A DNA stretch of 60,749 bases, counting the filler, from Rhizaria sp. SCN 62-66 (lineage: Eukaryota): assembly GCA_001724265.1 (NCBI GenBank). It is 2 parts of 2 records of this genome, joined end to end, with 100 filler letters (N's around TTAATTAATTAA, not from the genome) between each part and the next. Parts side by side here need not be neighbours in the genome. Positions count along the whole stretch, not along the records: positions 1 to 30,414 come from MEDY01000365.1; positions 30,515 to 60,749 come from MEDY01000366.1. One strand, written 5' to 3'. The notes below the pieces were generated by a model that saw nothing but the letters and a program-made list of their open reading frames with translations, did no database searches and was not told the DNA's origin. Positions 9,644 through 59,112 of the stretch are shown piece by piece; the first letter of the stretch is position 1; every line of letters begins with the position of its first letter. A program made the position numbers and the translations under genes.

Positions 9644-12600
9644 TTAGGTTGTGAATCCTGAGGCTAAGAGACTGTCAACTCCGGCAATGACTGTATCAGG
9701 ATGCGTTGCTACACCAGGCGCACTGCTCACAGTTAGCCGAAACTTGCACTGTAAACACACAGACGAGGTACTGAGACTTGGACTTGCGGAGTGCAATTGA
9801 CACAGCTCGTGAGCCACGGTGATTGTGAGCAGCGACTCAGCGCTCTTCGTGCTGGATGGCAGAGTGCTTGAAATAAAGCCAGGGCAGTCTAGCGCAACGC
9901 CAGCTTTCAAGTTGCAGCTACTATCACACTGTTTGCAGTCATTATCGACGCTTGCAGCAGAATAGTTATAACTCTCATTGCTGATTTCACAACCACTCTT
10001 CACAGTTGTAACCGAGATTGCAATATGAGGACCATCAGCCACATCGACATTTGCACTCGTTGCGGTAGCAAAAGTTCTACTTGTACTTGCAGTCATGGGA
10101 GAAAAGAGAGACATCACTGATACAACAGACGCAACAGCAGCAGCGCCCTTGGCCTTTGCAGCCACGATAGCACGTGCACTTACACTCATGTTGATATCGA
10201 GATCGCTGTCGCTGTTATTATGATGAAAGTTGCTGGCACTGACACTCTTGAAAGTACTATTGAGTGACTGGGAGCAATATTGATCGTAAACGCACGACAC
10301 AACATTCAGCGAAGGGACTGGGCACTGTTGACTTGAGTGAGTCTGAACAGACTCTGAGTATTTATCGTCAGCAAGAGGCATACTAGCAAAAACATAGCTC
10401 GTGCTGTCGTAGTTATTGTTGTTGCAAACACTTACAGTTACAGTGTGAGCAACATTGTCGCGAATATGATTATTATTCTCAGCAGCAGTAGCTGTTGCTG
10501 CTTGCAGTCCGACCATCGTTGTCGCAACAGCCGCGGTCGTTACAGCGGTCACAGCAGAAACCAAGACAGCACTCAAATCGTCACTCTGTTGCGTACAGTT
10601 ACCGTTCGAGCTATTGCTACTGCTGTGACATTGTTCACGCATTGCGCGCTCAAACAGTTGAGCCACACCAGCAGTAGCGCCTTTCTCACTCCCACTGCGG
10701 CCAATCCTGTCGGAGCCGCTTGTGGCGGCGGCCAGAGCCAAGTGCGCCTTAAAGCGTAACAGCAACAAGGGAGAGAATGAGCGTGACCAAGCAATACGAC
10801 GGCGAGCAGCGCCAAGGTAGCCTTGCTGCTGCTGATTTTGGCCTAGTTGACTGGAGCCGCAACCGCTTGAGCTGCGATTGTTTGCGGTCGTATGCACGCT
10901 CGTGTTAGCATTTGATTTTAAGCCGCCGGAGAACAATGTGTTGATTAGAGATGCAAGTGTAAAGAATGGTAGATAGGAGATGAAAACAAAGTACCAAAGT
11001 GAACCGCGACTGTAAGTACCCATCATATTCATCTCACGTAGACTCTTAGCTGAGCTAGTGTAAGGCTTTGTCAGTGACTAAGAGCAGCTGCATTCACATG
11101 CGCAGCAAGGCCCCAACTGTGTCTGTGAAAGCTGCTGGGAGATGCTGTTGCATCCGGCATTATTAACCGCCGTAGCAGCATCAGCAGTACTCGCCGCTGC
11201 CATTTTATTCGCAGTTGATGATGATGGCCCTACACCTGTTGCTGTAGCAGCGGTGGTTACAGACCGCGAGAGCGGGGATGTTAGCACGTAAGCGCCAAGC
11301 CTCTTAGAATTTGCTGCAATGCGCTTCGACATGTCTGCATTATCAAACTCTGCAATGCTGCCCTTGTTTTTTAGCTGTCGCTGCTGGAGCTGTAGCGATG
11401 ACGGTGACAGAGCTGATGGTGGTGCAAGCTGAGGAATTACAGGGGAAACAGATGAGTTTGAGCTTGCTGCACTCGCTGTAGCTGATACTGGCGCCGACAC
11501 TGGCGAAATACCTGCAGAGGTTAAAGTTGAGCGAGGACTTGCAATAGCACCACGCTGCCGCAGCTCTGAGGCAGGGCTTAATACCTGGCGACGCTGTAAA
11601 TCAGACGTGTTATCTGAATCATCGTTGTGGTAGTTTGCAATCATACTATCGTCAACACTGCTCTTGCTTATGCTATCGATGCAGCTTGCAGCAATGTTAT
11701 GATGGTAGTTGTGTTGGGGCAAAGGCGTGCGTGTCAGGGCTTGCGATTGTGAAGGTAACTGCGAACAAGAGCTTGGCGACTGCACATATTCTGGGCACAC
11801 GCAACACTTTTGGCTTACTAGACATGTGTGAAAGCGGCTAACATCATTGTCATTTGCAAGATACGAGTAGTGACTGTGAGATTGACAGTGACTGTGTTCG
11901 TCATTGCAATCAACGTGTGCTGTTGCCAGTCTCGTTGAAGCTGTTGCAAGCGCTATCGGTTCAGGTGTTACGCGTAGCGCTAACGACGGGGTTTCACCTT
12001 TCCACGCAGAAGTTAAGCCGCCACCAGAGGCGTGAAAAGCAGCAGCGGCAGCCACACGGCAGCGCTGGTGCTTGTGGAGGATCCGCGTGCTGAGATTGTT
12101 GTGATCACATTGAGAACGCTCTAAGCAGGCTTGGATGTAAGTTGACGAAGCACTAAGACTGTTCTCACAATTATTATTACTGCCTAAGTTATGGTTACGA
12201 TTGCTGCCACTTGTCGCCGCTTTGTTATTGTTAACAGCAATGCTGGTGACCCTTACGTCCCGCTTAGCAGATGAGCTTAGACGCGGATACTCAAACTGCA
12301 GCTGCACGCGGAGTAGCAACGACGCAAGTACTGGAAGCGGAAGCACGCGGAGCTGGCTTAAAGTCAAGCCGCCGGCAGTCACAGATAGGCCTTTACTCTC
12401 TGTGCTGCTAGCATGTGCAGGACTTTGCGCCATACCGTCACCGTTCGCAAGAGCATGCTGAGTGGGTAATTGTGGAAGTTGCAACAGCGGAAATGAAGCT
12501 GTTGTTGAGCTTTTAATCTTGTCGCTTGCGCAAGTCGTCAAACCAGTGTTGTGAGACGTCAGCAAGGAGTGATACTTGACTTGTTCAAGAAGCTGTTCGC

Positions 12601-15600
12601 TTGAGCTGGACCATTTGTCGAGCCATGTACTAAGACCAGCGTCACTTGAATCGGTGCCAACATGCATCTTCAAAGAGCTGCGATTCTTTTTGAGCACATT
12701 ACGAGCAAAATTTTTGCCGTTGTTGTGATCGTTACAATTACCTGCGTTGGTAGTGTACTCATTGCAGTATCCAGAGCTGTTGTTTTGCTTGCTAGTGCCA
12801 GTGACGTTGCGGTAGAGTGACCGTGGAGACTTAAGCAGCTGACCAGCGCCATTCTCGCTAATTACACTCATGCTGGTAAGGTTACTCGAGCTATTTGTGT
12901 TACGCCACTCGTTCTGTTGCTCATGAATATGCACAAGCTGAGACTGCTTGTTGGTGTTGCGTGGGCTTAGAACAGTACTATTCTCATCTTCTTCATTGCT
13001 GTCGCAATCATGGCGGCTGCTGTAGCTCGAGCTCCCATCACTGCTCGCATTGCAACCTTCACGGATCCCTATGTTATTGCCATCATTTGTCGAGAGCGCT
13101 TCCAACAGTGACGCAAACACAGTTGCGTGAACAACAGAGAGAGCTGACAGTTCATGGCCAAAGATGGAATTTGCGTCCGGGCTTGCTGAAAGCGCAGTTG
13201 CGGCTGTTACCCTGAGACGTGCCAGCAAAAGCGGGTGGCAACGAAACAGCACAGCTGACCGTGACTGCAGTTGCGTCTGAGAGTGCACGCTGTTGGTTTT
13301 GTAACGAGGACCACACGCGTTAATAAGTGCAATTTCCCATAAAGGACCCTCCGCTTCAGCCATCACTTCAGCTTTTGCTTTATCGCTGGCCTTTACGGCA
13401 GCTTTAACGGCCTTAACAGCCGCTGCAGCAGCCGCAGTCGTTGATCCTGCTGTGCCTGCTATTGCTGTTGCATTGGAATTCGCGCTCGTAATCGCAGTAG
13501 CCGCCGCGGCAGAGGCGAACTTAGCGGCATTGACGGCGGCAGCAGCGGAGACAGTGAGTTGTTTCAACGAAGCAAGCGGCTTGACAGCAACAAGCGATAC
13601 AAAGGCCTGCAGCGCATGCTGTGTAGGCAACCGCAAGTAGTCACTGTTTTCGCTATTTTCATTCTCACGAGAGCAAGTTTTCGTATTGTCTGCGCTACTA
13701 ATACTAATACCGTCCTCCTCTTCTTTGTTAGACTCACAGTTGCGTCCATTAGCACCAGATCTGCCTTGCCACTGTTGCTGTTGCTCTTGGAATTGTTGCT
13801 GCTGTTGCTGCGTAAATGCAAACTGCGACAAGGACAGCGAGTAGTTGCGACTGCGTGACTGTGTGAATGGCTGTGAGCGTGACTGAGCAATGGTAGTGAC
13901 CAACGCCGCTGCGGTGGGAAATAATGCTGCTGCTGAAGTAACACGAGAAGATAAGTTTAGTTGCTTTGCTGACGACCAGAAGGTAAGCCGCATGGCACTA
14001 TAGTCACACGCGTTGTTAGTACCCGTGTTGAAACTAGAACCGCGTGAACGGCATAAGGAAAACCTTGCTGATGGTTTGCTGATTGTAACATCAGCATTAA
14101 CAGCATAGCTACTTATATCACCAGCAAGAATTGCACTTGCGTCAGGAATGCCTGCAGACCTCGATCTATTATTTCTCACAGTCTTAGAGCTCTTATTCTT
14201 TAGAGCAGCCTGATTGCTGCTGGCACCATCTAAGGGCTGCTTCGACAGGTCTAAGGGTGCCTCCGCGAGCGGCCCCGCACGCCAGTCGCTCCACACGGCC
14301 TCCGCGACCGCGGCCCGAAGCTCGTCTAGAGTGACCTCGCGCGGCAGCAGCAGCAGCAGCGTGTGCGGCGAACACTGGCAGCGCGGGGACAGTGCGCAGC
14401 AGCAGGGCGGCAGCCAGGCCGGTAGTGGCACTGGCAACGCTGTGGGGGCTGTAACGGTCACCGTGGCTTTCGTTGTAGCTGCGGCAACATCAGAGAGATT
14501 CGAAGTGGCTTTAGTAGGACTGCTGCGCGCGCAAGCCTGACTGTGAGCACATGAATGACTGTGAATGCTGCAGTGTTGAGCCGCAGAGCCGTGGCCTGGC
14601 TAGCAAGCCAGGCTTAAAGAGGCGTTGAACATGCTACGTTGTGCTTGCGGTGTAGAGGTCAACACGTTCACTTGCGGGGCAGCGCTGGTGTAGGTGTGGC
14701 ATCCGCCCACATCAGTATACGTGTAGTTGTTGGCATTTGAGACACGGGCATGGTGGGTGCCCGTCTCTGGCGCCAGCTGCGACTGCAGCTGCTGCTGGTG
14801 TTGTAGTTGGAGCGACTGCCAATGAGACGGAAAGGAGACTGAAATCGGGGTTGTGTCCGAAGTTAAGACGCCTGGCGTGGCTTGGGGAGACGCAGATAGA
14901 GACACACTGCTTGCCGCTGCGCCATTGTTGACGACAGCAGCAACGGGTTTGAATGCTGTGGTTGCAGTTTGAGGTTGCTGTCCGCAAGGCTGCAGCGTTG
15001 CGCTGTCAGTTTCCTCTCCAGCACTTGTTGAAATCGTAGTCATCTTGGGCTCTGGTGCTGCTGCTGTTACTTTGGCAATCAGATTAGTTTCACTACTGCC
15101 TTTTGCGGTTGTGGCTGCTAATGCCAACTTTGCAGCCTTTGGCTGGACTGGCAGCAGTGGTGGTTTTACATTAGCAGCGCACACTTTGGCCTCAAGCTGA
15201 GGCTCCTCGTCAATGCCTTGAAGTAAGATGCGTGTTGCGCCGCTTGCCGTGAGCCTCAGCATTACTTTGCGACCACCAGGCGCCGGCAACGGAGCGGGAC
15301 AGGCGTTACCAGCGCATATAACATTGGTGCTGCCACTTGTGTTAGCGCTCGATATTGTCGCGTTGTTGCAATAATCGAGTGAGTCAATTGACATAAAGGA
15401 GTCGATGCTGTTGATTGACGGGAAAAACAACGAAACAGGAGACGGAGGCTCAGCCTCAGCCTCAGCTTTAGCCCCAGCATCACAGTCCTTCTGAATCAAC
15501 TCATCATTGTTCGCGCTGATGCCACTCGCATGCCCGTGTTCTTCACGCTCACAGTTGCCGCCGTGACCGATATTTGCGTCAGAGCTGTTTGATTGTGAGC

Positions 15601-16912
15601 GTGAGCGCGAGCACGTCCGCGATTGCCAATGCTGTGATTGGAGCTGCGACGGTGATCCTCGATGCGACAGCGACGTCGGTGAGAGCACTGCAACTACTTC
15701 GGCCACACATCTCTCTTCGTCACCAACAACAAGGCTGCTACTGTTATTGGCTTCGTTGATTGCAGCAGAGGCAATAGGACCTGTCCGTACTCCAGCGTTG
15801 CCACTCTGAGCCATGTCACTTGTCTCATTAACGTCAGTATCATCAGTATATGTACCGCCAGAGACCATGTAAGTGCCAACAATGTCGGTTTCCAGCTGGG
15901 GGGCTGCTGCTGCCATCCGCATTGCGCCGCGCACGCTCAGATTAGCAGCGGACCGACTTACAGTTGGAGTGCTTACACAGTAGGTACTTACATGAGCACT
16001 CGCTTCTGTCGTGTTAGTTTCGTTATGCTGTTGCAGAGTTTGCTGCTGCTGTTGATGCTTGACTTTGCTGCTACTTTTTGCTGCGCGGCTTGTCGGCGCT
16101 AGCGCCCTGGCAGGCGTAAGGATGTCTGATGTCAGTACTAGTGACGCCGCTGCAACAGCGTTCATAAGCATCGCGTGTCGACGCTGCTGCGACACTGCGC
16201 TCAGCAACGCAGCCGAGCCCACGCTCACATCGCCGCAGTTAGAAGAAGTCCTTGCGCTGCCGTTGTTTTGCGAGTATGTTCTGAGAGCGCTGTGTGTCAG
16301 CTTAGTTAGCGCAATCAAACTTTCATCTTTCTCGGAAACGTTAGAGCTTAAGCCAGTGGCTGCCAAGGCCAAGCCGACAGTCACCGCTGTTACTTGTGTT
16401 GCAACTGATGCTACCGTTGTTGCCGTTGTAGCTGCTGTTTGTGTGACAAAAAGCGCTGTTTCAGCTGCCGCAGTGACTGCAGCATCGACTGAGTCAAACT
16501 CAACGCCGCTGCATGCATTCACGCCGCTGTTGCCAAGGTCCACCAAGTCTGCGCGGTCCCGCTCGGATGCCTGACTCGCGCAGTTGCACGTGCGCGCAGC
16601 GTACGCGCACATGGCTACCACGCCCGTTACTACGGCCCTTAGAGTCCTTGCGACGGCCATGAGCAGCAGAGCACACAGCAACAGCGCCAGCGAGAGCGGC
16701 AGCAGCACGGCGTAGCCGATCACTGAGAGCAAAAGCGCGGGGACCGGGTGCGGCGCCGCGGCCGCAGTTGCGGCAGCGGCGGCGGCGACGGCCGCGGGCG
16801 AGGAGAGGACATAGAGGTGGACGGCATTACTGGCAGTGCTATGACTGGCACTGGTATCGCCGTCTGAGTTGTGAGGGTTAAGTGAGGGCAATGGGGACAA
16901 TTGTGCGCTCAT
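9644..16912 (-). CDS. ~2420 aa protein with an N-terminal TM segment and dispersed, degenerate WS/DGAT-like motifs; reads through in-frame TAGs at 14602-14600 and 11080-11078
   Basis: Three consecutive ORFs (777, 1127 and 462 aa) share one frame, separated only by single TAG codons with open coding-like sequence after each; final stop TAA. PLWEIALI...AVLFRCHP and IAISVTT...LKAGVALD resemble WS/DGAT motifs (family call tentative). Confidence 0.7.
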
Positions 16913-17624
16913 TTTCCACGCAAAGTTGCGCAAAAAAGTGTTTAACGCAGCTAAGACCGAATACCTTAGCGCCAGTCAAGTGGTTTTGCGACGAGCAGAT
17001 TCTGATGTGTTATGCGTTTAAGTCGATGCAAGCCTTGATAAACCAGCAAAAGGGTTGAAAACTCCTTGTTTGCTGTATAGAACAAGTAAATAAGTTGAAT
17101 CAAAGAGATACAAATTTGATCAATCGATGAGTTATCTTAAGATATCAAGACGGAAAATAGAGTTCTAAGTGTTGCTGCGCAGCAATAAACAAGTGCAAAC
17201 GCTATTTCGCATAGAAGCCGCACATGGTCAGCACCAGAAACTTAAAAACTACATTAAAACAAAATTATGCCACAAAAGCTGACATTGCACCGCTTAATTT
17301 TCAGTCAAACAAATATTTGTGCTTAGTTTCGAGATGAATGCATTTGGAAGATCCGTTGCTTTGCCGTCACACAGTGAACACGACATCCTTGTCAGATACT
17401 CACAGATACCGAAGTTTCCGTGGAATATAATTAAGGTATTTGATTTAAAAAAATATTGAATTAATAATACTAAGTCAATACTGCTGTTAACGGATGGTGG
17501 ACGGAGATTATGTCATTACCAATCTCGACGCTCGATCGAGCCTGCAATTTGGCGCCTGCGGCCCTGACCACATTCGGAGGTATACACGACGGTAGCAGCA
17601 GCCTTTAGAGGTATCAACGTGGTG

Positions 17625-18440
17625 ATGAACGAAAAAATAATTCAACACTACTTTGACATATTCCCTGATGAAGTGTCTTTGATCAACCGTGTCATCCAGG
17701 CCCGCGTCTTTGGCAAGTACGTCCCACCATGCACCTGAATCCGCTCTCGTCTCTTCTCCGTTTGTGCTTGTCTGCTCTCATGATTGCAGAATTGCTTTTG
17801 CTTATAACCCGTCTTTGTGCAGAATTACAAGCATTGACCCGCTGGCCAAGACGGCCGTGTTATCGTACAACAACGCGGCCTTGCTCGTGAACATCGCGCT
17901 GATGCCGCAGAGCACCGGCGCCAACAACGCCAGCGCCGGCGGCGGCAGCGCCTTCAGCAGTGCCGTGCTCGCACAGGCCGACGTCGAGCACCAGCAGGCC
18001 CCGCTCGTGGTTGACAGTCTCTATTTCCTACACGGCACGCTTGAGCCAGCCATTCCTGGGGTACGTCTATCTCGTTTGCGCAACAAAACACATGTCACAA
18101 ACACTCTTGCGAACAGCACTAAAGGAGTCATATCTCGTCAGTATAAAAGAATTTGATTATAATCCCTCGTCTACATGTATTTTTGTATATGATATTTGCT
18201 AAAACAAAAACAATACGATTTATGTGTTAAATCGTTGTTCTTTGCCCCCCGCAGCGATCCGAGGCCGTCTTCTCCCCGTTGCTCTGCCGCCGCGCAGACG
18301 GCGTGCACGCGGGCGCGCACGCCGCAGCCATCGCGGCGAAGCGCGCCATGCTCTGGGCTGCGGGTGCTGTGCTGCCCATCCCCGCGCCGGCCGCCGGAGC
18401 CCATGCCCAGCCCCAGCAATAGCAGCAGCAGCAGCTCTAA
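17625..18440 (+). CDS. TEN1: CST complex subunit TEN1-like OB-fold protein; exons 17625-17716, 17823-18060, 18255-18440; in-frame TAG at 18420-18422 inside a poly-Gln tract
   Basis: Spliced product DIFPDEV...ARVFGKITSIDP...LLVNIAL...DSLYFLHGTLE...LCRRADGV...AIAAKR parallels the TEN1 pattern (LRTFGRL, GSLYxxxGEL, xEGM/DG). Both introns are GTACGT...GCAG and preserve frame. Confidence 0.75.
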
Positions 18441-18622
18441 TACATATACACGTCATCTTGGCCACCTTGACTCATCTCAACATCGCAATAATGAGCAATC
18501 AAAAGTCTAGAAAGAACCTTAACTTAAAAACGACGTAGTTAGTACACATTGCACTCACTTGTTGTCTGCCTTAGCGCTTAGACGTGATCGACAACTCTCT
18601 CAATCTCACAGTGGCCGCTGCT

Positions 18623-21429: not shown

Positions 21430-21728
21430 TTAGATCGCAGCCATCTGGACCTCGCTGCTGGCGTGGTCGGGGCCGGTCGCTGTGGCCTCCTGGTGGCGCG
21501 CCCCGCGCGCGTCGCTGCCGCTGCCCTCGCGCGGGCTGGCGGGGGGCGAGGCGGCGACCTTGCCGCTCTTGCTGCCGCCCTTGCCCCCGAAGCACAGCAG
21601 CGACTTGAGGTAGCACACAATGAACGCGATGATGATCAGCACCACGCAGACGGGGACGACGACGGCGACGATGATCGTCGTCGTGTCGTCGCCGCCGCCG
21701 CTCTTGCCGTCACCGCCGTCACCGCCGT

Positions 21729-21759
<31 letters not shown>

Positions 21760-26971: not shown

Positions 26972-27814
26972 GCAGGGCAAGTCTAAGAAACACGCAAAAA
27001 GCAAGTCCAGAGAGGTAAAAAAACACACGTGAGGAAGAGAGAACCAGTTATCACGTTTGGAGCAAGTGGACATAGGGGACAGTTCGGAGGCAAAAAGTAT
27101 GCGGCCGCCGATTCTGATGTTGGATTGCGTTTTCAAGCACCAAAAAACAGTTGAAACAAGATCCGAAAAGAATGTTTTGGTAGATAAAGAGGTGATGTAC
27201 AGCCCGAAAGCCGTCGCTATCGCTCGCGTAGGGATATAGACGGTCTCGCGGGCTTGAGGTGAGTGCGCTTGAGGCGGATCGAAAGGGGAGCGCTTCTGAT
27301 TACAAAAGCAGAACCTCCGCACATAAACCACGTTTCCAAAAGAAATTTAAAAATTCAGTAAATTATTCACAGCACAATCTAACATATATTAGAGTAGCAC
27401 TGCGATTGAAGCACCGCTCGCCGATATCTAGCGTGCCAAAGCAGACGTTTGAACGTTTTACCTCTTACCACACGCGCCTGCACTAGAACTGGTCAAGTCA
27501 ACTGATAAGACAACATTTGACTGGCATCCAGCTAAGCCTCAAAGGACGACTCAAAAGTCGAGATATCGTGCGTTGATGGAAATATCAAAATGATTTTAGT
27601 GTATAAAATACGATTTATCAAGCGCCATTAAATCAGCACTCCTACTACTACACATGCCTTTTGTGCGCACGCACGCGTCCTACGTATCTATTACCGCGCT
27701 CACACAAAACAAAGCAAACAAACAACAAACTAACTCTCGCACGAATAACCTTCGCATATTATTATCACTCAACACACAGACACAGCAACAGAAGAATTGA
27801 CTTAGGGAGACTGT

Positions 27815-45249: not shown

Positions 45250-48200
45250 TCATTTCTGCTGCATGTTCCAGGCGTTGGCGAGTGACTGCAGTCGGCGTCC
45301 CACTGGCGGCGCAGCGAGTGTGCCAAACTGGAACGACATCATAGGAACGATAGCGGGCGCCGCCTGAACTGCAGTGCCAGGCGGGCCCGCGGCGCGACGC
45401 TGCGGGACGCCCGCGGCAGGAGCGGGCGCAGCGTCAGCCTGGTGGCGCGCGTGCCACATAGCCTCCTCCAGCGCTGCGTTGCCACCGTCGCGGAAGTGGC
45501 CAGTGGGCTGCAGGAACCTGGGGCCGCCGCAGCCGGGCCGACTGACGCCAGCGCCCGCAGACGCAGACTCTGCAGCAGCCAGCGCCACGCTCATGGGCTG
45601 CAGGTCGCGGCCCTTGCTGCGCGTCATCGGCCGCGCGCCAACAGCTGACGACGTCGGCTTTGTTGTCGTCGCAGTCGTGGCAGAAGTTGGGGCAACAGCA
45701 CCTGTGGCAGGGTGAGGCGCGTGCACCGGCAGCGAACGCAGCCCGCTCGTGCCAGGTGCAGCCACTGAAACAGGACCAGAGCGGACGGGCACAAGTGCGG
45801 GGCCAGCCGCGGCCAGCACTGGCGGCAACATCAACGGGACTGCTGAGCGGCTTTGTTGCTGCATAGCGACCGTGAGCGGCACATGCGTGGGGCCGCGCGA
45901 GCCCGCGCCTCGCGCCGACTGTGCGGCACTAGCGGTCTGCGAGCGGACTAAGGAGCTCGCTGCGCGGGACGGCGCGGTCACGGGTGGCGCGGAGCCTGTC
46001 GATAGCGCTGCAAGCGCCGACGTGAGGCGCAGGGGGGGCGGCGCGGGCGCGACGGGGGCGTGGCCAATAGTAGCGAACAACAGCGCGCGGTCGTGCTGGT
46101 GGCGTAGCGTGACTGCCTCGGCAACAGCGGCAGCAGTGGCGCGCGGGGCGGCGCCCGCAGCGCGCACGCGCGGCGGCGGGCGACGCGGCCAGGGCGGCAG
46201 CGGCTCGGCGCCCAGGGTGGGCGAAGGCGGACGGAAAGGCGCATCAAGTGAGTCCCCGCCAGCCACCAAGTGCGGGGGCAACTCCAAGGGCGATACCCAC
46301 GGGTCATGGCACACGCACTCGCACGCACATTCAGGGAGCTCTGTGTCTGTGGTCGCAGCGCCTTGATCTACCCAGGGTGACGGCAGCTGCTCAGTTGGGT
46401 CGAAAGACTCGCTGCTTCTCGCTCCATCGCTATGATCTGCAGTATCAGTGCGTTGCTGTTCGCGGATACTCTTCTGCAAACGCTCATGAGAAATATGAGT
46501 CGCGTTGCACTGTGCGCACCAGCGACCAGCATCGCCAAGAGTACCCCACGTGTCCTTTGTCGTGATCTTGCTGTGAGTAACGGAAACAACCGCGGCACTC
46601 GCACCAGACATCGCAGCCCCTGCGGTAAGAAGCGAAGACGCCTTGCCCGCGGCAGTGCCGCCTGATGCAGCAGCTTCAGCCGCGGCAGCAGCGGCAAGAG
46701 CTGCAGCAGCCGCAGCAGCTGCGGTGGGCGCGGCTTCAGGGTCCGTCAGAGCAGCCACGGCCTCGCGTTTCAGCGCCGTGAAGGCTTCATTCTTGGCAGC
46801 GCGGGGGGCGCTCAACCGCACAACTGCGTGTGGCTCGCCCAACGCGGCCAACCGCGCTGTAACCGCAGCACAAAGTGCAAGAGCACGGGGCAGTGATGGG
46901 CGGCGCAGTACAACGTCAACGAAGACTGAGTCTTGTGTCGAGGAGGGATAAATGGTGCGGACAGTCACGTCGCTAAGGTTAAGCGGCTCGTCGTCACCCA
47001 CAGGCGGCGCAGAACTGCTTGAAGGTCCTGTCACAGGTACTGGAGCGGTACCTGGTCGCGAGACAGGGGTCGGGTTAATCAAGCGCTGCAGAGTCCCGGC
47101 GGCGTCAGCTTCCGCGCGTTGGCGCTGGACAAGTGCGGATGAGCTGTCACTCGCTGCACTGGAGGGTGACCTGACGTCTACAGACGTCTTTGGGGCATCA
47201 AAACTTGCCCTTCTGACAGCCGCTCGAGCTGCCACAGCTGCACTCTCAGAGCCGCTCAGGTGCGATCTGCCGGATGTGTCCGATGTGACTTCAATCTCAC
47301 CGCCCGAAGCGACCTCGGCAGCAATAGCACGCTGCGCGAGCTCGTGTAGCTCGGGCGGCAGAGGCACGCCGTGACGCAGGGGCCGCAACGCAGCCGCAAG
47401 AGCGCGGGCAGCCGCAGCGCCGGGGTCGACGGCGCTGCGGAGTGTAGCCAGCAGCGCGCGCGGTGCCAACGTGTGAAGTCGCTGCAAACGGTCGACACGC
47501 AACACCAGCCCGGCCGGTTCTGCCGCCGCAGCAGCAGCCGAAGCGCTAAGCCCAAGTGAGGTGCCCATGCCACCATGCGCGCCCGGTGAGCTTGGGAGCG
47601 CTGGCTGCACTGCTCCCAGCTGGCTACCGTCAGCAGAGTCAAACTTCGCCGGCTCAAACTTCGCCGGCTCATCATTGTTCTCAACAGCTCCCGACGACGC
47701 TGGGGACGTGATGCGCACTGCGTGCTGTAGCGCACGGGCAGGCGTCTCGAGCACTGTCTGCATAACGCGGACGAGCATCGCATCCCCCGCTGTCGCGTGA
47801 ATCGGCTCACAAATCTGCACCAGCGTCGGGAGCGGCATCTCCAGCGTGCACGGTGCATCGGGCGCCTGCGGCGGCGTCTGCGCCGAGCGTGTGTGCGCGC
47901 CCTTAGGTGAGCCTGATGACGCAGCGGAGGCGGACGACGGGTACGACGAAAGCGAAGGCAGCACGCTGTCGTCAAGCCCTGCGGTGGCGCGCGGCAGCGG
48001 CTCCAGCATTGGCTCATCAGCCGCAGTGGGCGGCCGCGACAACACAACTGACGGACGCCGGGAGCCGCCCGCCATCAGGGGCATGGCCAAGGCAAGACCA
48101 AGGCTCGGGCGGCGCGCTGCCTGCAGCGACATGCGCAACTGCGCAGACGCAGACGCAGCCTTTGGACTCGGTGGAGCTGGCGTGGCGGCGGCGGCAAGTC

Positions 48201-51200
48201 GTGCCATAAACGATGTGTTCGCGCTAGCAACAGGTGCCACAGGGAGTGGGGGGGTTGGCGCGCGCGACGCAGAGATGCCTAGCGAGGCGCGACGCAGACG
48301 TGCTGCTGCGGCGGCTGCGTGTGCGATCGCGGACACTGCCTCGCGCACAGAGGCATCGGTGAACATAACGGCTTGTTGCGGCGAGAGCGCGGTCAGCGAG
48401 ATCGGAATAGTTGCAGCTGCAACAGCAGCAGCGCCAGCGGCGGCAGCAAGAGCGGAGGCCGCAACAGCATCGCCCGCGGCTGCAGCTGCAGCAGCTGCAG
48501 TGCCAGACACGAGCGACGCGCGGCGACCGAGGCGCGCAGTAGCCAGATCAGGCCTGTGCTCAAGCGGGAGCGGCATGGACGCCGGCGTCGTCGATCGCGG
48601 AGGCGCTGCTGCAGGGCTCCCACCCAAAGTCGGCGCCGGCCGCCGCGGCGGGGGCGAGTGTACGCCAGGCCCCGGTATAGTCACCTGCCGCGCACTGGAT
48701 CTTGACTCAGCGCGAGACTGCGACGCGCTGAGGCGGGCAAGTGCGGATGCCGCCGCGGTCGAGTTCGTCGTCATGGATGCGGGAGCCATGGGCGGTGGGG
48801 TTGGGACAGCGACTATGTCCATTAGAGGACTCCCGGGAGGCGATGCTGAAGCGTCAGCGACAGTCGTAGGACGCAATCCAGACGTGCGCAGCAGCGGGGC
48901 GCGGACATGTGATTGCGGCAACGCTAACGAACGCAAGGATGCCCCACGCGCGGGTGATGCGGCATGAGCCCTCGCTGATGCCATAGTGGAAGCGTCAAAA
49001 TCGTCAACTGGGCCAGCTGCTGCCGCTTGGGCAACAGCCTCTAAGGCATCAGCAGCCTCGGCAGCAGCCTCAAGCCGAGCTGTGTTGGTCTCAATGTGCG
49101 CAGAATCCATAGCCTTAGTCTCTATCGCAAAGTCAGACTCCATAGGTAATGCGGTATCCTGGTCATCATGCCCAGCAAAATCCACAGCACTGAGTTTGTG
49201 AGGTGCAAGATGCATCGGAACCAGAGTCTCTGCAAATGATTGACGAGCGCGGGAGGCGAGGACGAGCGGCTCCGCAGCCGACGAAGACACGTTCCCACCC
49301 AGCGCACGCAACAGGCTCGCAGCACCAGAGGGCACTCCAGCGGAAGCGGCGGCGGCGGCAGCAGCCTCCGCGGCCGCAGGTGCGCGCGCCCGACCGCGGG
49401 CAAGCGAGACCATCAGTGAGTCGGTGCGCTGCCGCTCCGCGGTCGCCAACGCGTGACGAAGGCGCGCCGCGTCACCAGGCCCCAGCACTGCGGTGGCGGC
49501 GGCAGTTGCCGCAGCGGCTGCACCGCCAACGCCCGCACTCACTGACGCCGTCGCACGTTCGGCGAGTGACTGCGCAAGCGGGTCACCGCGCGGCGGGAGC
49601 GGGCGCGTACGCGGCGCAGGATGCAGCATGCGTGCGGCACGACCCACGCGCTCGGCAGCTGCTGATAGGTGAACGCGCAGGGGTGCAACGGTGTGGCGCG
49701 CACCGGCCGGAGCAGTGGCGGTTGCCGGCAGAGGCAGTGGCGGTGCACCAGAGTGGTCAAGCGTGGATGCGGTGGCTGGACGCGAGGCAGGATCCGGCCG
49801 AGCAAGCAATTCGCGGTCGGGCACGTCGGTAGAGAACGTCAACACAGCGGTGTTGCCCAGAGGTGAGCGGATGATCGACGCCATCGCGGACAGCGCTTCG
49901 GCGTACGTCAACAACCGCTTCTTCAACTTTTGCTGCCGCCGCTGTCCTAACAGGATGTTGGTCGTCGCCGACATGGACCCGCGCTTCGAGTGGCGGCCAG
50001 ATGCGGTGCCAGAGATAAGCTTGCCAATTTGCGTACCATCCGTTGCGAGCTCTCCATCAACCACAGACGCGCTGTCGGTGCCATTCTCTCCAGCACTGCT
50101 TTCCGCCTCGCTGCCGCTTTCACTGCTGCAATCACTGCCGCTCTCGCCGTCCGCGTCATCACCCTCATTGGCCTCGTCGTAAGCATGCAACAGAGCACGC
50201 GCACCACGCAAGGCAAGGCGAAGGGCACGGCGCTGAGCTTGTTTTCTGGCGCAACGTTGATCGCGCAGCTGTATCAACTTTGCCTTGTCTAGATTGCCTT
50301 GCATTGAACGAAGCGACACGGATGTCTGCACATATCCATATGCGTCATCATGCATCGCACGCGGCTTATCAGCGCTTTCAGTCCGGGGTGAGTCATCGTC
50401 CCCGTCAGAGTCGGAGTCGCTGAGCGCAGTGAGCGGCAGCGCGAGCGGAAGTGACGAAAGAATAGCACGCTCGCACTCACTGGGGTAGATACGCTCAGTC
50501 TGAAAGTGCAGCGCCCGCGCCCGGAGCGCTCCACGTAACCGCGTCCCAGTTGTAAGCGCTGACAACGCAGATGCTGCGCGAAGATCGTATAAGCTCGCAG
50601 AGTTTGCCAACACGAACGACGAAAAGGGCCACAGAGGAGCTCCCACCGAACCGCTTGTCGCGCTTGTACGCGCAGACTGAGGCATAGCTGCATTGCTGCC
50701 CGCACTGGCCGTGGAGGCGGTGGACGCGCGAGGAGAGAGCGCGCCGGAGAGCCCGAGCACCGACATCGAACCCGCACTGTTGCGGCGCGCAGTGATTAAG
50801 CTGAGGTTGGCGGCCGCAGCTGCAATCGGTGACGCACCTGCAGCGCGCATCGCGGCCGCAGGATCGTCTTCCTCCGACTCAGCCGCGGCATCCGGCGATG
50901 AGTTGTGATCAGATATGCTTAGCGTGAGCGGATCACGCAAGCCACCCCCAGAACGCGATGATGCAACGGCAAGCGCAGCCGCAGCAACAGCGCTCGGCCC
51001 GCCGCGACGGGTTGGGGAGTTTCCTGCTGGTGCGCGCGCTGACGTCGCAGTCCGAGAAGGGCTAGTGTTGACGGAGTTCTGTGCTTGGGTGGCATGACGC
51101 CGGGGGCTCTTGTTGCCGCGTCCACGCAGACGCACGTCCGCCTCAGGGTTGCATGTTTGCACAAGGAAAGGCAGTAACTGCTCAATGCGCGTCCTCGCGG

Positions 51201-54200
51201 CGGCAGCAGCATTCGCAGCGGCGGCAGTCGCGCTCGCCTTCGCGGGAACCGTTACAACGCCGGCACTGCCGAACTCAGAGGCGCTTAACGCCAGGGCAGC
51301 TGCCGCAGCCGCGGCGGCCGCGGCCGCGTCCACCTCTCTTTCCGGAAGCAGCATGTCAACGTAGTCGCTCTCAGCGCCGCCAGCGGCCAAAAACAATGCG
51401 CGGATCCCGGCCGCTGTCGCACTCGGTTGCGGCGGGGCTAGTACGGATACAGACGCGGACGAAGCGCCAGGCAGCGGTGCAGCGAGGAGGCCGGCGCGCG
51501 CCGACGCCACAGCCTGATCGACTGTCGAGCGCGCTGGCTCACGCGTTGACTGCGCCGCGGTCTCTGCTGCGGCCGCGAGGGTGCGCAGCCCACGGCGCGC
51601 AGCACGTGCCCTGCGGGCAACAATTGTCACAAGGGCCCGCAGCAGAGGCTGTGGCATGTTGCGCGCGTCTGGCAACGAGCCTGCGAGCGAGAAAATGGCC
51701 GCGTCATCGAGCGAGTCCAGCATACCGAGCGGCAGATTAAGCGAGCCACCCGCGCCGACACTAGCGCCCATAAACCCATGTCCGACGCGCTTTGCCGTCG
51801 GCGATACCGTACCCACAGGAGTGGCTGAAGACGACAGAGGGTGAGAGCTGTTTGAACGCATGGACCCGAGCGAGCCGGTGGTGTCGTCGTCCTCGTTCTC
51901 ATCCAACCCCGGCAGTCCATCGCTGCCGCGACCGCGACCGTCCGGGTCCTCGCTGTCAGTCGAGTCGCCATCGCCAAAGCCACTGTCGCCGTCCTGGCGC
52001 GGGGACGCCTCGCCCCAGAACCCAGAGTCCGCACCGAGTCCTGTGGCCGCAGCAGCCGCAGTGGCTGCGCGGCGCCGGGCTGTGGCCGCAGCAGCGGCGT
52101 CAGCGTCGACGATTGCGGCCTCCTCGTCGCCCTCGGACGGCGTGGTGAGCATCGCGGGGCCACTGAGGCCGACGTTCGAGTCGTTACTGGCGAGAGAGCT
52201 CGGGCCAGAGCTCGACGCAATCGGCTGCGGGAGGCGGGGCGCCGCACGCCAGGGACCGCGTGAAAACGTGGTGGCCGTGGGCGTGGTCGCCAAGCGCGGG
52301 GAAGCAGCTGCCCAGCCGCCAGTGCCAACCGTGAGCTATGTGGCGCGCGGTGAGAAACCGCCTGGGGCGGGCGCGCGCGGGCTCGCAATAAAAGAAGACG
52401 GCGAGAGCTGCGGCGAAGGAAATCCGTCGGGCGAGCCGGGGGCTGTCAAACCTGACGTCGTGTTTGTCAGCGCAGTAGCCACAGTTACCGCCGCGAGCAG
52501 CGCCGCCTGCAACCCGCCCGCGGTGGGAAGGAACGGCGTCGCCGCAGTCGGGGACGTAAGCCGCAGAGGTCCGGACGAGGTGGCCACGCGAGGAGAAAGC
52601 ATTGCAACGGCGGCCGCGGCGGGGCGCGGGAGCGCAGCGAAGACCTCCGGACTACCCACCATCACTTGTCTCGCGGTACCCGTGGTTGCCACGTCGGCGG
52701 CGACTTCGCGGACCAGCTCGGCGGCGTGGCGCCACTGCGCCTGGATCAGCGGGTTGCGCGGCTTAAGCGGACTGGTCGAGCCTGTGCCGGCGGCACCTGC
52801 GCTCGTGGCAGGACGCGAACCGGCGGGGAGTGTGCCGCGCTCCAGGCCTGCGGCCACTGTCGCAGCGACGGACGCCGCCGCCGCGGCCGCGCGCGGCGGA
52901 AGAGCGTCATGGCGCGCGCCGCCATTAGCGGTCGCAATGCGGCCACGTGCCTCGGCAAGCGCACTGGGGCCATAATGGCGACAGAAGTGTGTGCCGAATG
53001 CAACGCCGCAGCGCGCGCAATAGTGAATGCCCGGTAAAAGCAACGCTGCGCGGCGCACGCGCGCGCACACAAGCACCGCCGACAGGAATGTGAGACCGCC
53101 ACCTTCGTCAAGGTCGGGCGCGCCGGACGCCGCGAGACCGGTGCTTGTGCCTGACTGAGCGGCACCTGCAGACGCGGCGCCTGTCGAAGGGGCTCCAACA
53201 GCGGCGGCGGGTGTTGCGGCCCCCCAGCCGCGCAGTCCGCCGCGGGGGTGGCGCGCAAGACCAGCCTCAGCGAGCACTTCAGACTCCTCGGAGCCCGCAA
53301 GTGGCAGCGCGGGGGCGCCCGCGGCGTTGGCGACGGCGCGGAGCGTGGCGTCCGCGGCGTCCGCGGCGACGTAGGCGGGCGCGACTGTAGGCGCGACGGG
53401 AAACGGCGCGAGCGAGGTGGCCAGCGTGAGCACGAGCGCGCGAGCGAGGGCCGGCGCTGGCGTGGTCACGGCGAACACGACGGCGCCGCCCGACGCAGCG
53501 GCGGGCAGCGGCGCCGCGATGCGCGCCACAACGGCCGCGGCAGCCAGCGCGCGCGCGGCGGAAACGCCGGCGCCGGGAGCGGGCAGTGACGCGAACGATG
53601 CCGAGGCAGAGCGTGTCGGGGCAGGCGTGAACGACGACACTGCACTGTGCGCACGCGGAGCAGCGACTGCGGCTGCAACAGATGTCTGCGTGGTCGACGC
53701 AGCTGAGGCGGCGGCAAGAGCGGCGTCAGCGGCGGCGACTGCGGCCGGTGAAGGCACGGCGCAGAGCAGCGCCCACTGTCCGACAGCGGGGGCAGAGGCC
53801 AGCGCGGCGGACGCGGACGATGTGGCGAGCGCGGTGGCTGAGGTCGAGGCCGCGGCTGATGAGAACGCGTACGGCGACGGTGGCAACAAAAGCGCCGAGT
53901 AGGGATCCGCGTTTGCGGCAGCAGCCAGTGCAGCCTCAGAAGCGGCGGCTGCTACCTCTGCGGCGGCGGCAGTGGCAGCGGTAGCGGCAGCAGCGGCCGC
54001 AGCTGCGGCAGTTGCGGAAACAAGCGGCACAGCGTCGGCGATCACCGCAGGGACAAGACTCTTACTGGCAGCACTTGCCGCCGCCGTGACAGCAGCGCCG
54101 GCAGCGGCGGCCGCGGCTGCAGGCGTAGGGGCTGCAGAGGCAGCGCCCTTACCGGCGCCGGACTTCCGCTTGCTGCCATCGGCTGCGGCAGTCACGGCTG

Positions 54201-57200
54201 CGGCCGCGGACACAGATGGCACGACGGCGCCGCTAAAGGCCGACACAGCGGCGCTCGTGCGCGCGGCAGTCCATTTGCGCCGGAGCGCGGCGCCGCGGCG
54301 CAGCCGGGACATCGCGGCGGGCGGCAGCAGCGCGGCCAACTTCGCGGCCGGCACAAACAGCACCGCGGTCGTCGTCGCCGCGATCGCGGACACAGGCGTC
54401 GCTGTTGCGGCGGCAGACTCTGCGGAAGCCGCGGCAAAAGCAGCCATCGTCGCGGCAGACTGACCGGCGTTCTGCGCGGGGTCGCCGCCCGACGCGCCAG
54501 CGGACGCGCCGGAGGCCGTGGCAGAGCCTGTGGAAGAGGACGACGACGCAGTCGCCGCAGCGACCGCGGAGGTGGCCGAGGGCGCCGTGGCCTGGTACAG
54601 CAGCGACTGTTCGCCGAAAAAGCTCTGCGGGGGCAGCGTCGCCACCAAAACCTGCGTCTCTGCATCGGCGCCAATCGCTGTCGACGCCGCCGTTGCAGCC
54701 GCCGCGGCGGCCGCCGCTGCAGCGGTGTCAGCAGCGAGCGCACGCTGGTCGCTCTCATGGGCCAGTCGGTCCGCATAGCGCGCCTCAGCGGCCGAGCGCA
54801 AATCGGCGTAAGGAGCGGCTGCGGTGGCCTCGCCCGCAGTCGCCTGTAGCATCATTGCGGCTGAAGACGTCGCGGCCGCCGCGGCCGCGGAGGGCGACGC
54901 GCGCGCATCTTGCTGCAGCATCACAGCGCCTGAAACAACAAAGTACAGGCCTAGCGCAGGCGTACCGCGCTGCAGCAACGTGTGTCCGGCAGAAAAGCGG
55001 AGAGGCTCGGCCGCGTACGCGAGCTGCGCGCACACAGTCGCGGGACAGCCGCGCAGAGAGGGCAGGTAGCGGAAGAAAGCGTAGCGGTGCCACGACTCAA
55101 GCGCGAAGGCAGGCGCGCAGTAGCGGTTCACGGCGGCCGTGAACGCCGCGCGCGGCACCACAAGCACCTGTGCGAGCGGAGTCGCGGCCGCGAGCGTGAC
55201 GGGGTGCGCGGAGGGCGGCATGTCGCCCGCGTAGTCGCCCTCGCCGAGTAGCGCCAGATTCAGCAGCGAGCCGGTGGGCACGCTATCGCCGTCCTCTTTA
55301 TCGGAGCCGGCGCCAGAGTCCGCTGCGCCGTCAGCCGCCCCGCGGCCGCGGCTCTTAGAGCCGCCTGAGTCCGAGGACACTGGGACATCTTCGTTGGGAG
55401 CCGCAAGCGCCGCGACAGCGCCGGTGAGCACGAGATATAAGTTGTCAGCAGCGGTACCCTGCTCGCAGATGACCTGGTTCTTAAAGTAAAGCCGCGACGT
55501 CGCTGCAGACACCACGAGGTGTGCGGCCTGCGGCGGCAATTGCGAGAGCAGCAGTAGCAGCGCCGCGGGGGTCCGGTGGCCCGCAGCGGCGCCCACAGAC
55601 GCGGCCGCCGCAGCGCCGCCGCCCGCTGCGGAGGCGAGAAACGGCAGCAGACGCGGTGTCAGCGACGGCAACGGCAACGGCGGCGGCGGGGGCAGCAGCA
55701 CAAGCGCCTTGTCCGCGGCGGGCGCAAGCGCGGGCGGTACCGGCGACGCCGCGAGCGCCAGCGCGCGCGCGAGGGCCTCGCCGGCGCGCGCAGCCATCTC
55801 GACCGGAGTGAAAGCCGTGATTGTGAGCGCAACGCCGCCCACCGTAACCTGCGCTGCCGACCCGCGAGCGCGACCCAGGCTTTCTGGCGACGCGAACGAC
55901 GACGGCGGCATGAGCGCGGCGGGCGCCAAGATCGCGGCCTCAGCGGCGCTGAGAGGGGCGAGCACAGCGCGGCGCGCGGCGGCCGCGCGGGCACGCGCTC
56001 GTGCGCGGGTGGAACGCATGGGTGAGTTCTGAGTCTGCGGCAAGTGCAGGTGGAGTCCGCGCGGGCCGGAAAGCGCGGCGTCAGACTGAGAGTTCGGCGC
56101 CAATTCGCGGCCTGCGCTGTTCTGAGACGTGAGGGCGAGCGCGCGGAGTGCAAGCGCCGCGGCAACTGTCGGCAGCCCGCGCGCGGCGCGCGTGACGCCG
56201 CGGTGCAACACTAGGTCCGTAGCCGTGAGCGCCTGCGCGCGTGTGCGGCGCTAGGGTGGTGTCTCGAGACTGCTGAACGTCGCGTGCGCGTCTTTGAGCA
56301 GCAGCAGCGTCGCGAGCGCCCAAGCGGGCAGCGCGGCCGGCGCTGCGGCGGCGGCTACAATGGGCGCCAGGAATAGGCACGGCAAGCGCAGCGGGGGCGC
56401 CAGCGCGGACGTGGCTGCAGCAACAAGCGCGCCCGATGTGACCTCGTCAGCACCGAGCGGAAGGCGCGGGGTGTCGCCCTCGCTTTCGACGCGCATCTTG
56501 AACAGCCCTGTGGCGCGTTCCTGGCGCGCCTCGAGCCCCAGCGCCGCCAGCGCCACGGCCGCGGAGGACGTTGCGCTGTCGCGCACGACGTCGGAGTCGG
56601 CGTCTTCTGCGGCGGCCGCTGCGGCCGGAGTCGCGGCCGTGGTGGCAGCCGCGAGCACGGCGTTGACAAGCGCGGTCTTGGACATGACGAGGTACTCGCA
56701 GGTAGTCAGTGCGCGCAGGTAGCGCCGCCGCGGTGCGGGGAACGCGCTAATCTCGTCGCAGCCGCCGCTCGCCGCCGCGCCCGCGATGTCTCCGCCGCTG
56801 GTGGGCATAAGAGCGGGCGCGACGGTGACGAACGGGAAAAGATCGTTGCGCACGTACACGGAGCCTGGCCCTAAGTGGCACACTGGCACCAGCGAGTCGT
56901 CGCCGTCGTCGTCATCATCATCCGCGCCCGCGCCGGCGTCGTCGCCCGCCTCGTTGTCGTCATCACCGGTGGTGCCGTCACGCGGGCTGCCACTGAGGCG
57001 GTCGTTTCCGCGCGAGCCATCGGCAGCGGCGCCGTCGCTCGTGGTCGCGGTGCGGCTGCCGGCGGCGCTAGCGCCGTCACTGGCGCGGCCCGCTGCCGCG
57101 CGCGCGCGCGGCTCTGCGCTGCGCCGTTGTTGTGTAAAGCCGAAGCCCTTGGCAGGCGCGCCACAGAGCGGTTTGCGCGTCCCGGCGGGCGCAAAGACGG

Positions 57201-59112
57201 CAATGGCGCCAGCTGTGACGATGACGACGTCGCCGCCGACGGGCTCACCCGCGACGGCCGTGCGCGGCGCACACGCGCGCGCGAGCGGCGCGCGCGCGGC
57301 GGGGGGCCAGGACGCGAGCAGCGGCAGCTGCGAGAGGAACTCGCGGCGCGCGGCAAGGCGCGCGGCGTCGCACAGGTAGCGCAGCCGCGCGAGCAGCGGA
57401 CGCGTGACCGTGAGCACCAGGACGGGCGTCTGCGCCCAGGTGCCCACGGTCACCACGCGTTGCGGCCGCGCAGCGGCGTTGTCGTCGCCAGCCGCAGCGC
57501 CAGAGCTAGCGCCAGCGCCATCGGTGGCGGGGCTGTAGGAGTCGTAGAATGGTGCGGGCGAGCGGCTGCCGCTGCCGGCGCGCGACGCGGGGCGCGACGG
57601 CGGCCGCGACGCCGCGCGGGATGACGGGCGCGACGACACTGGGGACGCGCCTGCCGAGCCCGTCGCCAAAACCAGCGCCGAGTCCACGGCGGCGGCGGCG
57701 TTCGCAGCGGCGGCAGCGCGCGCGCTCGCGGCGGGGTTGGAGGGCAGCGCGGTGATGGGCGGCACTGGGGGCAGCGCGGCGCACAGCAGCGGGTCTGCGC
57801 CCGCGGCCTGGCCGAAACCCAGCGACGGGCACAGCAGCACGTGCCGCAGCAGCTTCGGCGGCGCGACCGTGGCCGCCGCGACGCGCGCGCGCTCGGCCCC
57901 GCGCGCCGCCGACTCCTCCAGGCTCACGGGCCCGCGCCGCGCGGCGACGGCGCTGCTGTGGCTGCTGCTGGTGGCGGCGGTGAGCGCGGGCCGCGATGGC
58001 GAGGTCGGCAGCTCGGGCTGCGGCCGGGGCCCGGCGCCGGGTTGCGAGCTCCCTCGCCGGCTCGCAGACGGGCTGAGCACGATCATGGCCCCGGCGCCAG
58101 AGCCAGAACCGGAGCCAGAGGCGGAGGCGGAAGTTGTGGTGGACGGGAGCGCAAGCGATTGCAGACGCGTGGGGCCTGCGGCGAGGCCAGCAGTCGCGGT
58201 GGACGGCGCAACGGGACTGGGCAAAGGCGCGGGCGACGGCATGCCATTGCCCGCAGCAGCAATCGCCGCAGCAGCAGCCACAGTGACGCCGGTCGGCGAA
58301 GGGGACGGGACAAGCGACGAGTCCAAATACGACGCATGCGACGGCGACTGCGAGCGCGAGGCGAGGGGCGTGGACGCCGTGGAGCCCGCGCGCGAGGCCG
58401 TGCGCGACCCCAGCCGCGAGCCCGCGGCCGAGCCCGCGGCCGAGACCGCAGCCGACCCGGCGGTGGACGCGAGCGAGGACGCGGCTAGGGACAACAGACC
58501 GCGGCCCGCGGGCGCGGCGGGCGGCGGCAGATGCGTGTCAACGGGCGAGAGCGCAAGCGTGCCTGCGAGCACAATGAATACGGGTGCGGTCGGCGCGGCG
58601 GCATCGAGCGACAGCACGTGGCCCGTGGGGAAGGCCTGCACGGGCGCCGACGCGATTAGTTCCGAGAAAACCGGCGGCGGCAAACACGCGGCCGCGGGCG
58701 AGCCGGAAAGGTGCGGACGCAGCAGCGCCAGGTCGCGCGCGGAGCGGTCCGCGGGGGCGCGGCCGAGCACGGAGAAGGCCGGCGGCAGCGAGTGCAGCAG
58801 GTGCAGGGCGAGCGCCGTGGGGGCAGCTGACGAAGGCGGCGCACCGGGCGCGGAGCCGGCGGCCGGGGCGCGTCCGCGGCGCAGCCGGGCTGCGGCTGAC
58901 TCTGAAGAGGAACCACCTGTCCCGGCGGTGTGACGCACAGGAACAGATGTCTTCATGTTGGTCAACAAGAAGCCGACGCAGGAGTCAGCGTGAGGCAGAG
59001 GTAACGGACCAGCTAAGTAAAGTAATAACGGGTCAGAAGATAAGTCTTCTGTCGGATTATCAGGTTTTTGTTGTTCTGTAAAACAATAGTCGTGAGAATA
59101 AAGTGGTTTCAT
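45250..59112 (-). CDS. Giant (~4570-4620 aa) apparently intronless protein with four cNMP-binding-like domains; in-frame TAGs at 56253-56251 and 52338-52336; alternative start ATG 58956
   Basis: The 953, 1291 and 2347 aa ORFs share one frame, separated only by single TAGs. cNMP-like motifs include YFKNQVICEQGTAADNLYLVLTGAV..LGEGDYAG and FSAGHTLLQRGTPALGLYFVVSGAV..LPPQSFFGE. Final stop TGA. Confidence 0.8.

Follow-up and report, generated by a model that had tools for sequence, protein, structure and literature searches.

In-frame UAG codons, most likely read as glutamine, in nuclear DNA of an uncultured GC-rich eukaryote from wastewater and bioreactor communities

The DNA analyzed here is a stretch of 60,749 bases from the assembly of Rhizaria sp. 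SCN 62-66 (GCA_001724265.1), referred to below as the window, which consists of two contigs with a run of N between them (30415-30514) and has a GC content of 50-75%. The sequence comes from the nuclear genome of a GC-rich, intron-bearing eukaryote that has not been cultured and lives in wastewater and bioreactor communities. Introns split its genes for Tma46/ZC3H15, an OTU protease and an RBM42-like protein; the known introns of the window are 149-163 nucleotides (nt) long, have GT-AG ends and do not preserve the reading frame. Chromo-domain, FUN14 and UBA-domain genes are also present, together with a gene for tRNA-Gln(CUG) and three large genes that encode a 2443-amino-acid protein, a cysteine-rich surface protein and a 4620-amino-acid protein (Table 1). 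The subject of this study is the TAG triplets that stand in frame within these large genes and elsewhere in the window. At least four genes contain UAG within their coding sequence, and we conclude that it is very probably an amino-acid codon, most likely for glutamine, with UAA and UGA as the sole terminators, as in NCBI translation table 15.

A preliminary description of this DNA had listed nine in-frame TAGs in five genes on both contigs. All nine trinucleotides were found at the coordinates given there, eight on the minus strand and one (18420) on the plus strand. The eight minus-strand sites belong to four genes, with both contigs represented, so that this part of the description held, whereas the fifth gene, around 18420, is a putative model. 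The remaining in-frame TAGs of the long open reading frames (ORFs), at 23274, 28819, 32363 and 33188, are splice acceptors or intronic.

Table 1. Positions of the features discussed, counted along the whole window; in the text, TAG sites are called by the first base of the codon.
Feature	Position	Strand	Details
tRNA-Gln(CUG) gene	570..641	+	T run downstream; normal 5-bp anticodon stem
Gene for 2443-amino-acid protein	9644..16975	-	Low-complexity, rich in Ala, Ser, Asn and Gln; TAA end; TAG at codons 792 and 1966
Surface-protein gene	21430..27346	-	Multi-exon; secreted/transmembrane, cysteine-rich, EGF-bearing; three in-frame TAGs; TAA at 21432
Tma46/ZC3H15 gene	27815..29273	-	Exon 29273-28890; GT-AG intron 28889-28733 (157 nt); exon 28732-27818; TAA
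Gene for 4620-amino-acid protein	45250..59112	-	Ala-rich; cyclic-nucleotide-binding domains; two in-frame TAGs; TGA end
TAG	11078..11080	-	Codon 1966; context CSCS-TAG-SLTK; CAG in the 2025 strain (run X4)
GAG, codon 1804	11564..11566	-	TAG in the 2025 strain (run X4)
TAG	14600..14602	-	Codon 792; 1651 codons until next TAA/TGA
TAG	18420..18422	+	CAG/CAA run QPQQ-TAG-QQQQL-TAA; putative gene model; weakest of the nine sites
TAG	23221..23223	-	EGF-like motif C-E-C-SPYYVG-T-TAG-C
TAG	25224..25226	-	Cysteine-rich region, NNCG-x9-TAG-C
TAG	26660..26662	-	N-terminal exon, LYTVEAT-TAG-ESVYVSF; next TGA 89 codons on, past likely exon end
TAG	30934..30936	-	Tandem repeat: FSP-TAG-RG, then FSP-CAG-RG
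TAG	52336..52338	-	SPRAT-TAG-LTVG; terminal TGA 2361 codons on
TAG	56251..56253	-	LETPP-TAG-RRTR
TAA gene ends	8147, 9253, 9646, 21432, 27817		Gene ending at 9253 putative
TGA gene ends	18625, 32100, 33867, 35936, 38667, 43329, 45252, 59536		

When TAG is read through, region 9644-16975 (minus strand) fuses into a single ORF of 2443 amino acids with two TAGs, and region 45250-59148 (minus strand) into one of 4632 amino acids with three, of which TAG 59133 precedes the first ATG. Neither coding frame holds an internal TAA or TGA, whereas the other five frames contain about 57-173 stops each (84-173 in 9644-16975), which indicates that the coding frames are not open by accident. At all eight minus-strand junctions the coding sequence continues in the same frame, as the preliminary description had stated, and it stays free of TAA and TGA for 89, 139, 477, 486, 596, 1651, 2361 and 3666 codons, the value of 139 being ended by the N run. 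After the 13 gene ends that could be checked, the frame is open for 3-72 codons, and the two sets of lengths do not overlap (exact one-sided Mann-Whitney p = 4.9e-6).

The approximately 14,200 confident coding codons of the window comprise eight TAG, no TAA and no TGA, in agreement with the earlier statement that internal TAA and TGA are absent; TAG 23274, a splice acceptor, and one TGA, the OTU terminator, were left out of this tally. About 2.5 in-frame TAA would be expected if TAA behaved like TAG, a number that leaves room for a rare sense use of TAA. As for the gene ends, 16 had been counted (11 TGA, 5 TAA); 13 proved checkable, five TAA and eight TGA, and none of them is TAG. Several ends could be compared with related proteins. 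The Tma46 gene, our control for TAA as a stop, encodes a C-terminus ...VPE-TAA, and its homologues finish ...LPE and ...VPDE. The surface protein ends ...EVQMAAI-TAA next to ...DIQMMDV in its homologue P0128, and the TGA of FUN14 follows directly after the last position of the Pfam profile. The TAA ends of Tma46 and the surface protein and the TGA end of FUN14 thus match the C-termini of homologues or a profile, which supports the view that UAA and UGA function as stops, as had been proposed.

Next, we compared the window with sequencing runs from other sources. The same DNA turns up again in runs from bioreactors, wastewater and activated sludge that belong to six studies dated 2015-2025. Five runs contain at least half of the probe words, and X1, X3, X4 and X5, from three studies, were compared along the window; X4 and X5 represent one strain of 2025, X5 being a poly(A) RNA library, and X3 comes from a different study. 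TAG 23223 is unchanged in an X3 contig over 21769-24883 (no differences) and in an X5 contig over 23186-23504 (two differences, at 23213 and 23399). TAG 25226 is likewise unchanged in an X4 contig over 24447-25275, where the sole difference is at 25062, and TAG 26662 in an X4 contig over 25255-26973 (no differences). Beyond TAG 23223, the exon holds six differences between the window and the 2025 strain (X4 and X5), five of them synonymous.

In the 2443-amino-acid gene, TAG codons differ between strains. Run X4 has A>G at 11080, which turns TAG into CAG (contig depth 6.27), and C>A at 11566, which turns GAG into TAG; TAG 14602 is not among the 24 differences listed, out of 26, in the X4 contig over 10496-16684. 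These 24 (9 synonymous, 15 non-synonymous) leave the 2443-codon frame intact and introduce no new TAA or TGA. Strains have therefore acquired and lost TAG codons while the ORF stayed open, and selection for reading frame and protein persists past UAG. As a side observation, short low-complexity stretches of GCN/CAG type (14341-14361, 16770-16792 and 28136-28178) draw many foreign contigs, and in each of the four runs compared this leads to spurious joints and to spikes in depth.

The surface-protein gene carries three of the TAGs and allows a comparison with homologues. Its exons include ~23274-21430 and ~23613-23424 as well as parts of two ORFs, A and B; a predicted intron of 149 nt (23275-23423) adjoins the exon with TAG 23223, and a second, between A and B, lies near 26400. 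An exhaustive profile search with the 956-amino-acid ORF B returned only six proteins among 1.84 billion cluster representatives. Two of them are the window's own ORF B (region 23766-26633, minus strand), split at TAG 25226 into P0124 (389 amino acids, residues 82-469) and P0123 (483 amino acids, residues 475-956), the product of a gene caller that used the standard code. The other four are environmental homologues of the surface protein, and this EGF-bearing family looks lineage-specific. P0125, P0126 and P0128 show the same architecture, and P0126 (1475 amino acids) runs unbroken over the region in which TAG 25226 splits the public gene calls. In an EGF-like motif (C-x-C-x3-[YWF]-x-G-x-TAG-C), TAG 23223 falls after the conserved Gly and before the last Cys. 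Homologous sequence lies to either side of these TAGs. Because public gene calls are split at TAG, metagenome catalogues systematically contain truncated proteins for this organism and its relatives.

Under a standard code, the TAGs would be assembly or sequencing errors, nonsense alleles, pseudogenes or boundaries of tandem genes, and where CAG is abundant no nonsense mutation arises more easily than CAG to TAG. All eight interruptions are TAG, however, although TGA is the commonest off-frame stop triplet, and none is accompanied by a frameshift, since the same frame resumes each time. The TAGs are also present in runs from other studies and are followed by sequence under purifying selection, and one of them lies within a conserved cysteine motif. 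Homology, selection, independent DNA and strain turnover together exclude assembly error, pseudogenes, separate tandem genes and short in-frame introns, and we regard a standard code as extremely improbable. The claim that TAG is a sense codon was thus borne out by the long open frames, the conserved cysteine motif at 23223, the synonymous differences downstream and the turnover between strains.

Removal of the TAGs before translation, whether through splicing of tiny in-frame introns or through RNA editing of U to C, was considered as well, as the organism has introns and other in-frame TAGs (23274, 32363 and 33188) are splice acceptors. Its known introns are of 149-163 nt with GT-AG ends and do not preserve the frame, whereas the spacing of the EGF motif is intact around TAG 23223 and TAG 30936 sits within a repeat unit. 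No joint that skips a TAG was seen among 15 of 58 joints. Such a removal is, in our view, barely conceivable.

Given that TAG is sense, glutamine is quite probably the residue. Apart from the TAG/CAG codon, all differences between the two repeat units at 30936, FSP-TAG-RG and FSP-CAG-RG, are synonymous changes of the third base (TTT/TTC, TCG/TCA and CCT/CCG), TAG 18420 is located within a run of CAG and CAA, and TAG alternates with CAG between strains at 11080. The suggestion that UAG is "probably Gln" therefore stood as the best reading of the context, namely repeat, CAG run and polymorphism. Where homologues can be aligned, the residues that face TAG vary (D/T/D in P0125, P0126 and P0128 at 23223), the alignment at 25226 is ambiguous, and a search for internal paralogues opposite TAG gave low-complexity matches only. 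Moreover, the GAG/TAG difference at 11566, in itself neutral as to glutamine, would be synonymous if UAG meant glutamate. The variable columns and the GAG/TAG difference keep glutamine short of certain and can be cited for another amino acid, of which Glu, Leu, Ser, Tyr and Lys are each one anticodon change away; precedents for UAG exist with Leu (a rhizarian and ciliates), Ser (Scotinosphaera) and Glu (a ciliate) (PMC11687900). No exchange of TAG with TTG, TCG, TAC or AAG occurs among the 24 differences listed in the 2443-amino-acid ORF, and the repeat, the CAG/CAA run and the TAG/CAG polymorphism all point to glutamine, so that we consider a different residue unlikely.

UAG is rare as a sense codon. 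The eight TAGs compare with 360 CAG and 112 CAA, which corresponds to approximately 1.7% of the putative glutamine codons, and the TAG/CAG ratio is 0.022 compared to 0.37 for the synonymous pair TTG/CTG. This rarity and the turnover between strains suggest either that the reassignment is young or that UAG is poorly decoded and selected against.

Several observations weigh against UAG as a sense codon, and against certainty about glutamine in the case of the variable columns and the GAG/TAG difference described above. The proteins that contain the eight TAGs all evolve fast, have low complexity or are surface proteins. The ~1,300 codons of small, conserved genes (Tma46, OTU, chromo, FUN14 and RBM42-like) are free of TAG, with ~0.7 expected. 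At 18420, a TAA follows only five codons downstream. The absence of TAG from 13 gene ends has a probability of ~0.02 if ~25% of ends were expected to be TAG; the sample of ends is small, and one window of 60 kb supplied all of them. No tRNA with a CUA anticodon was detected in the window by tRNA and Rfam scans, the Rfam scan returning tRNA only.

In the RNA library X5, depth drops almost to zero across 9600-14247 and 19560-20887 and amounts to 2-6 across 21552-27527, the uncovered stretches being no evidence either way. X5 thus covers the surface-protein gene and hardly the 2443-amino-acid gene or the spacer at 19.5-20.9 kb, which argues against plain carry-over of DNA. Its contigs (23186-23504 and 26272-26606) are, however, colinear with the genome through the intron at 23275-23423 and that near 26400. 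As they keep introns, they do not represent mature mRNA, and the RNA is uninformative on translation. Retained introns, pre-mRNA or a certain amount of DNA in the library could account for the unspliced contigs. Consensus strings from loose ends in X5 at 17960, 18354 and 18779 had no match in the window.

These observations also bear on the idea that UAG is ambiguous or leakily suppressed, still ending some genes or stopping some ribosomes, and is tolerated mainly in long, weakly constrained genes. Such ambiguous codes are known in other eukaryotes (PMC4967479, 10.1101/2022.04.12.488043), and the idea would fit the very low number of TAGs (8 in ~14,200 codons), the few conserved genes without TAG and the weak constraint on the 2443-amino-acid gene (15 non-synonymous versus 9 synonymous differences). 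On the other hand, TAG ends none of the 13 genes, so that a use both in frame and as terminator of many genes, which marks ambiguous codes of the Condylostoma, Parduczia and Blastocrithidia type, was not seen, in a sample too small to exclude rare use. Purifying selection is clear after TAG 23223, and TAGs 23223, 25226 and 26662 are unchanged in runs up to ten years apart. We therefore give ambiguity only a slight chance and continue with UAG as a regular sense codon.

For a tRNA to read UAG but spare UAA, its anticodon has to be CUA; the same argument has been made for Iotanema and for exLh, a rhizarian (PMC5304391). The tRNA-Gln(CUG) of the window is one mutation away from a CUA suppressor. 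A 23-nt stretch of this tRNA matched one metagenome contig, L001, again with CUG, and none of the genome or viral contigs, and a 28-nt stretch of its 3' half had no match in genome contigs; the collections scanned for tRNA did not return the window itself, and those scans leave the existence of a tRNA(CUA) undecided. L001, which is 4.7 kb long, carries a letter-identical tRNA-Gln(CUG) at 2539-2612 (minus strand) with different flanks and similar GC-rich, Ala-rich ORFs; it likely derives from the same or a closely related organism. Mechanistically, UAG may be decoded by a tRNA-Gln(CUA) that would have arisen from the tRNA-Gln(CUG) type by a single anticodon change. Alternatively, the process may have started with near-cognate reading of UAG by tRNA-Gln(CUG) itself. 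In addition, recognition of UAG by eRF1 would have been lost or weakened.

The two longest proteins offer few further clues. The 2443-amino-acid protein had no family match in the Pfam scan, and the sole Pfam match of the 4620-amino-acid protein is the cyclic-nucleotide-binding domain (E = 2.9e-15). A homologue search around TAG 56253 in the latter, whose gene has a GC content of ~70%, returned only its own fragment, with 8000 word candidates swamped by low complexity. The GC content is ~50% at 10000-22000, which includes the 2443-amino-acid gene and its neighbours, versus 72-75% at 52000-58000 in the 4620-amino-acid gene. An in-frame TGA at 38132, which joins two ORFs (37169-38809, plus strand), was examined as a candidate for recoding and rejected: it is intronic in the RBM42-like RRM gene, whose second exon (~38240-38669) uses another frame.

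In order to place the organism, we used Tma46 as a marker. Its second exon is most similar to environmental proteins (61-66% identity), and the nearest named relatives are oomycetes with ~53% identity. In a quick tree, based on this single gene and on sampling limited to the top matches, the window falls into an environmental clade of 10 (support 95) beside Blastocystis and oomycetes (support 87). A tip labelled "Plasm..." groups with Bremia inside the oomycetes (support 100) and is probably an oomycete that is uninformative on Rhizaria. No fornicates appear among the named entries of the best 120 of 171 Tma46 matches (E <= 0.001). The OTU exon, tried as a second marker, retrieved only its own protein and one environmental match (59%). 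Phyllopharyngean ciliates are frequent inhabitants of wastewater. The macronuclear DNA of ciliates, however, does not resemble long contigs with several genes and 150-nt introns, and both GC content and intron size argue against a ciliate origin. Nothing seen so far connects the organism with fornicates or with the sainouroid exLh. The lineage is apparently new, GC-rich and non-ciliate, and it is plausible, as the preliminary description had suggested, that its reassignment is independent of the known UAG lineages.

The type of code is already known, namely a reassignment of UAG only, similar to table 15, and the window apparently adds a further case at an early stage. UAG is split from UAA in a rhizarian, Iotanema, Scotinosphaera, Protocruzia, some phyllopharyngeans and one oligohymenophorean (PMC11687900). 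The fornicate Iotanema spirale has the same code (UAG as Gln, UAA and UGA as stops) and the same predicted mechanism, a tRNA-Gln(CUA) derived from tRNA-Gln(CUG) (Panek et al. 2017, PMC5304391). In contrast, our organism combines a GC content of 50-75% with spliceosomal introns of ~150 nt, a FUN14 gene and a Tma46 that groups beside stramenopiles. Phyllopharyngean ciliates and Protocruzia tuzeti likewise read only UAG as Gln and retain UAA and UGA as stops (McGowan et al. 2024, PMC11687900). In those ciliates, however, 78-91% of genes carry UAG, compared to ~0.06% of codons and 4-5 of ~16 genes here, and the phyllopharyngean GC content of 27.4-53.6% contrasts with up to 75% in the window (PMC11687900). 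UAG is also decoupled from UAA outside the ciliates in the rhizarian exLh (Sainouroidea), with UAG as Leu, and in Scotinosphaera, with UAG as Ser (PMC5304391, PMC11687900). The amino acids differ in these two cases, whereas the context in the window favors Gln, and no change between TAG and TTG or TCG was found among the differences listed.

In a literature search of titles and abstract openings, we found no report of a nuclear UAG reassignment in stramenopiles, and a literature search for a recoded eukaryote from activated sludge found no report among the matches listed. Alternative codes also occur in metagenome-assembled genomes of giant viruses (PMC13524828). The window differs from these in being cellular: housekeeping genes carry spliceosomal introns, the tRNA gene has a T run downstream, and Pfam scans of the window found no viral hallmark genes.

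Overall, we tentatively propose, as one possible account, that the window records an independent and young reassignment of UAG to glutamine in an unsampled, GC-rich, heterotrophic lineage, possibly related to stramenopiles, which was caught in progress and persists in wastewater reactors. The notion of a reassignment in progress is based on the small share of UAG (~2% of glutamine codons), its confinement, thus far, to weakly constrained genes and its turnover between strains. Recurrence of the organism in reactor and wastewater runs from 2015 to 2025 makes enrichment and direct tests realistic.

The nuclear split between UAG and UAA is known from a handful of lineages, and a non-ciliate case contributes independent data on the co-evolution of eRF1 and tRNA. 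A TAG that is rare and polymorphic in a GC-rich genome bears on the question of whether stop codons are reassigned through an ambiguous intermediate or through codon disappearance. If the proposal is true, the organism would be a counter-example to the AT-pressure "codon capture" route of stop-codon reassignment, and organisms of this type would be natural candidate hosts for giant viruses that read TAG as glutamine.

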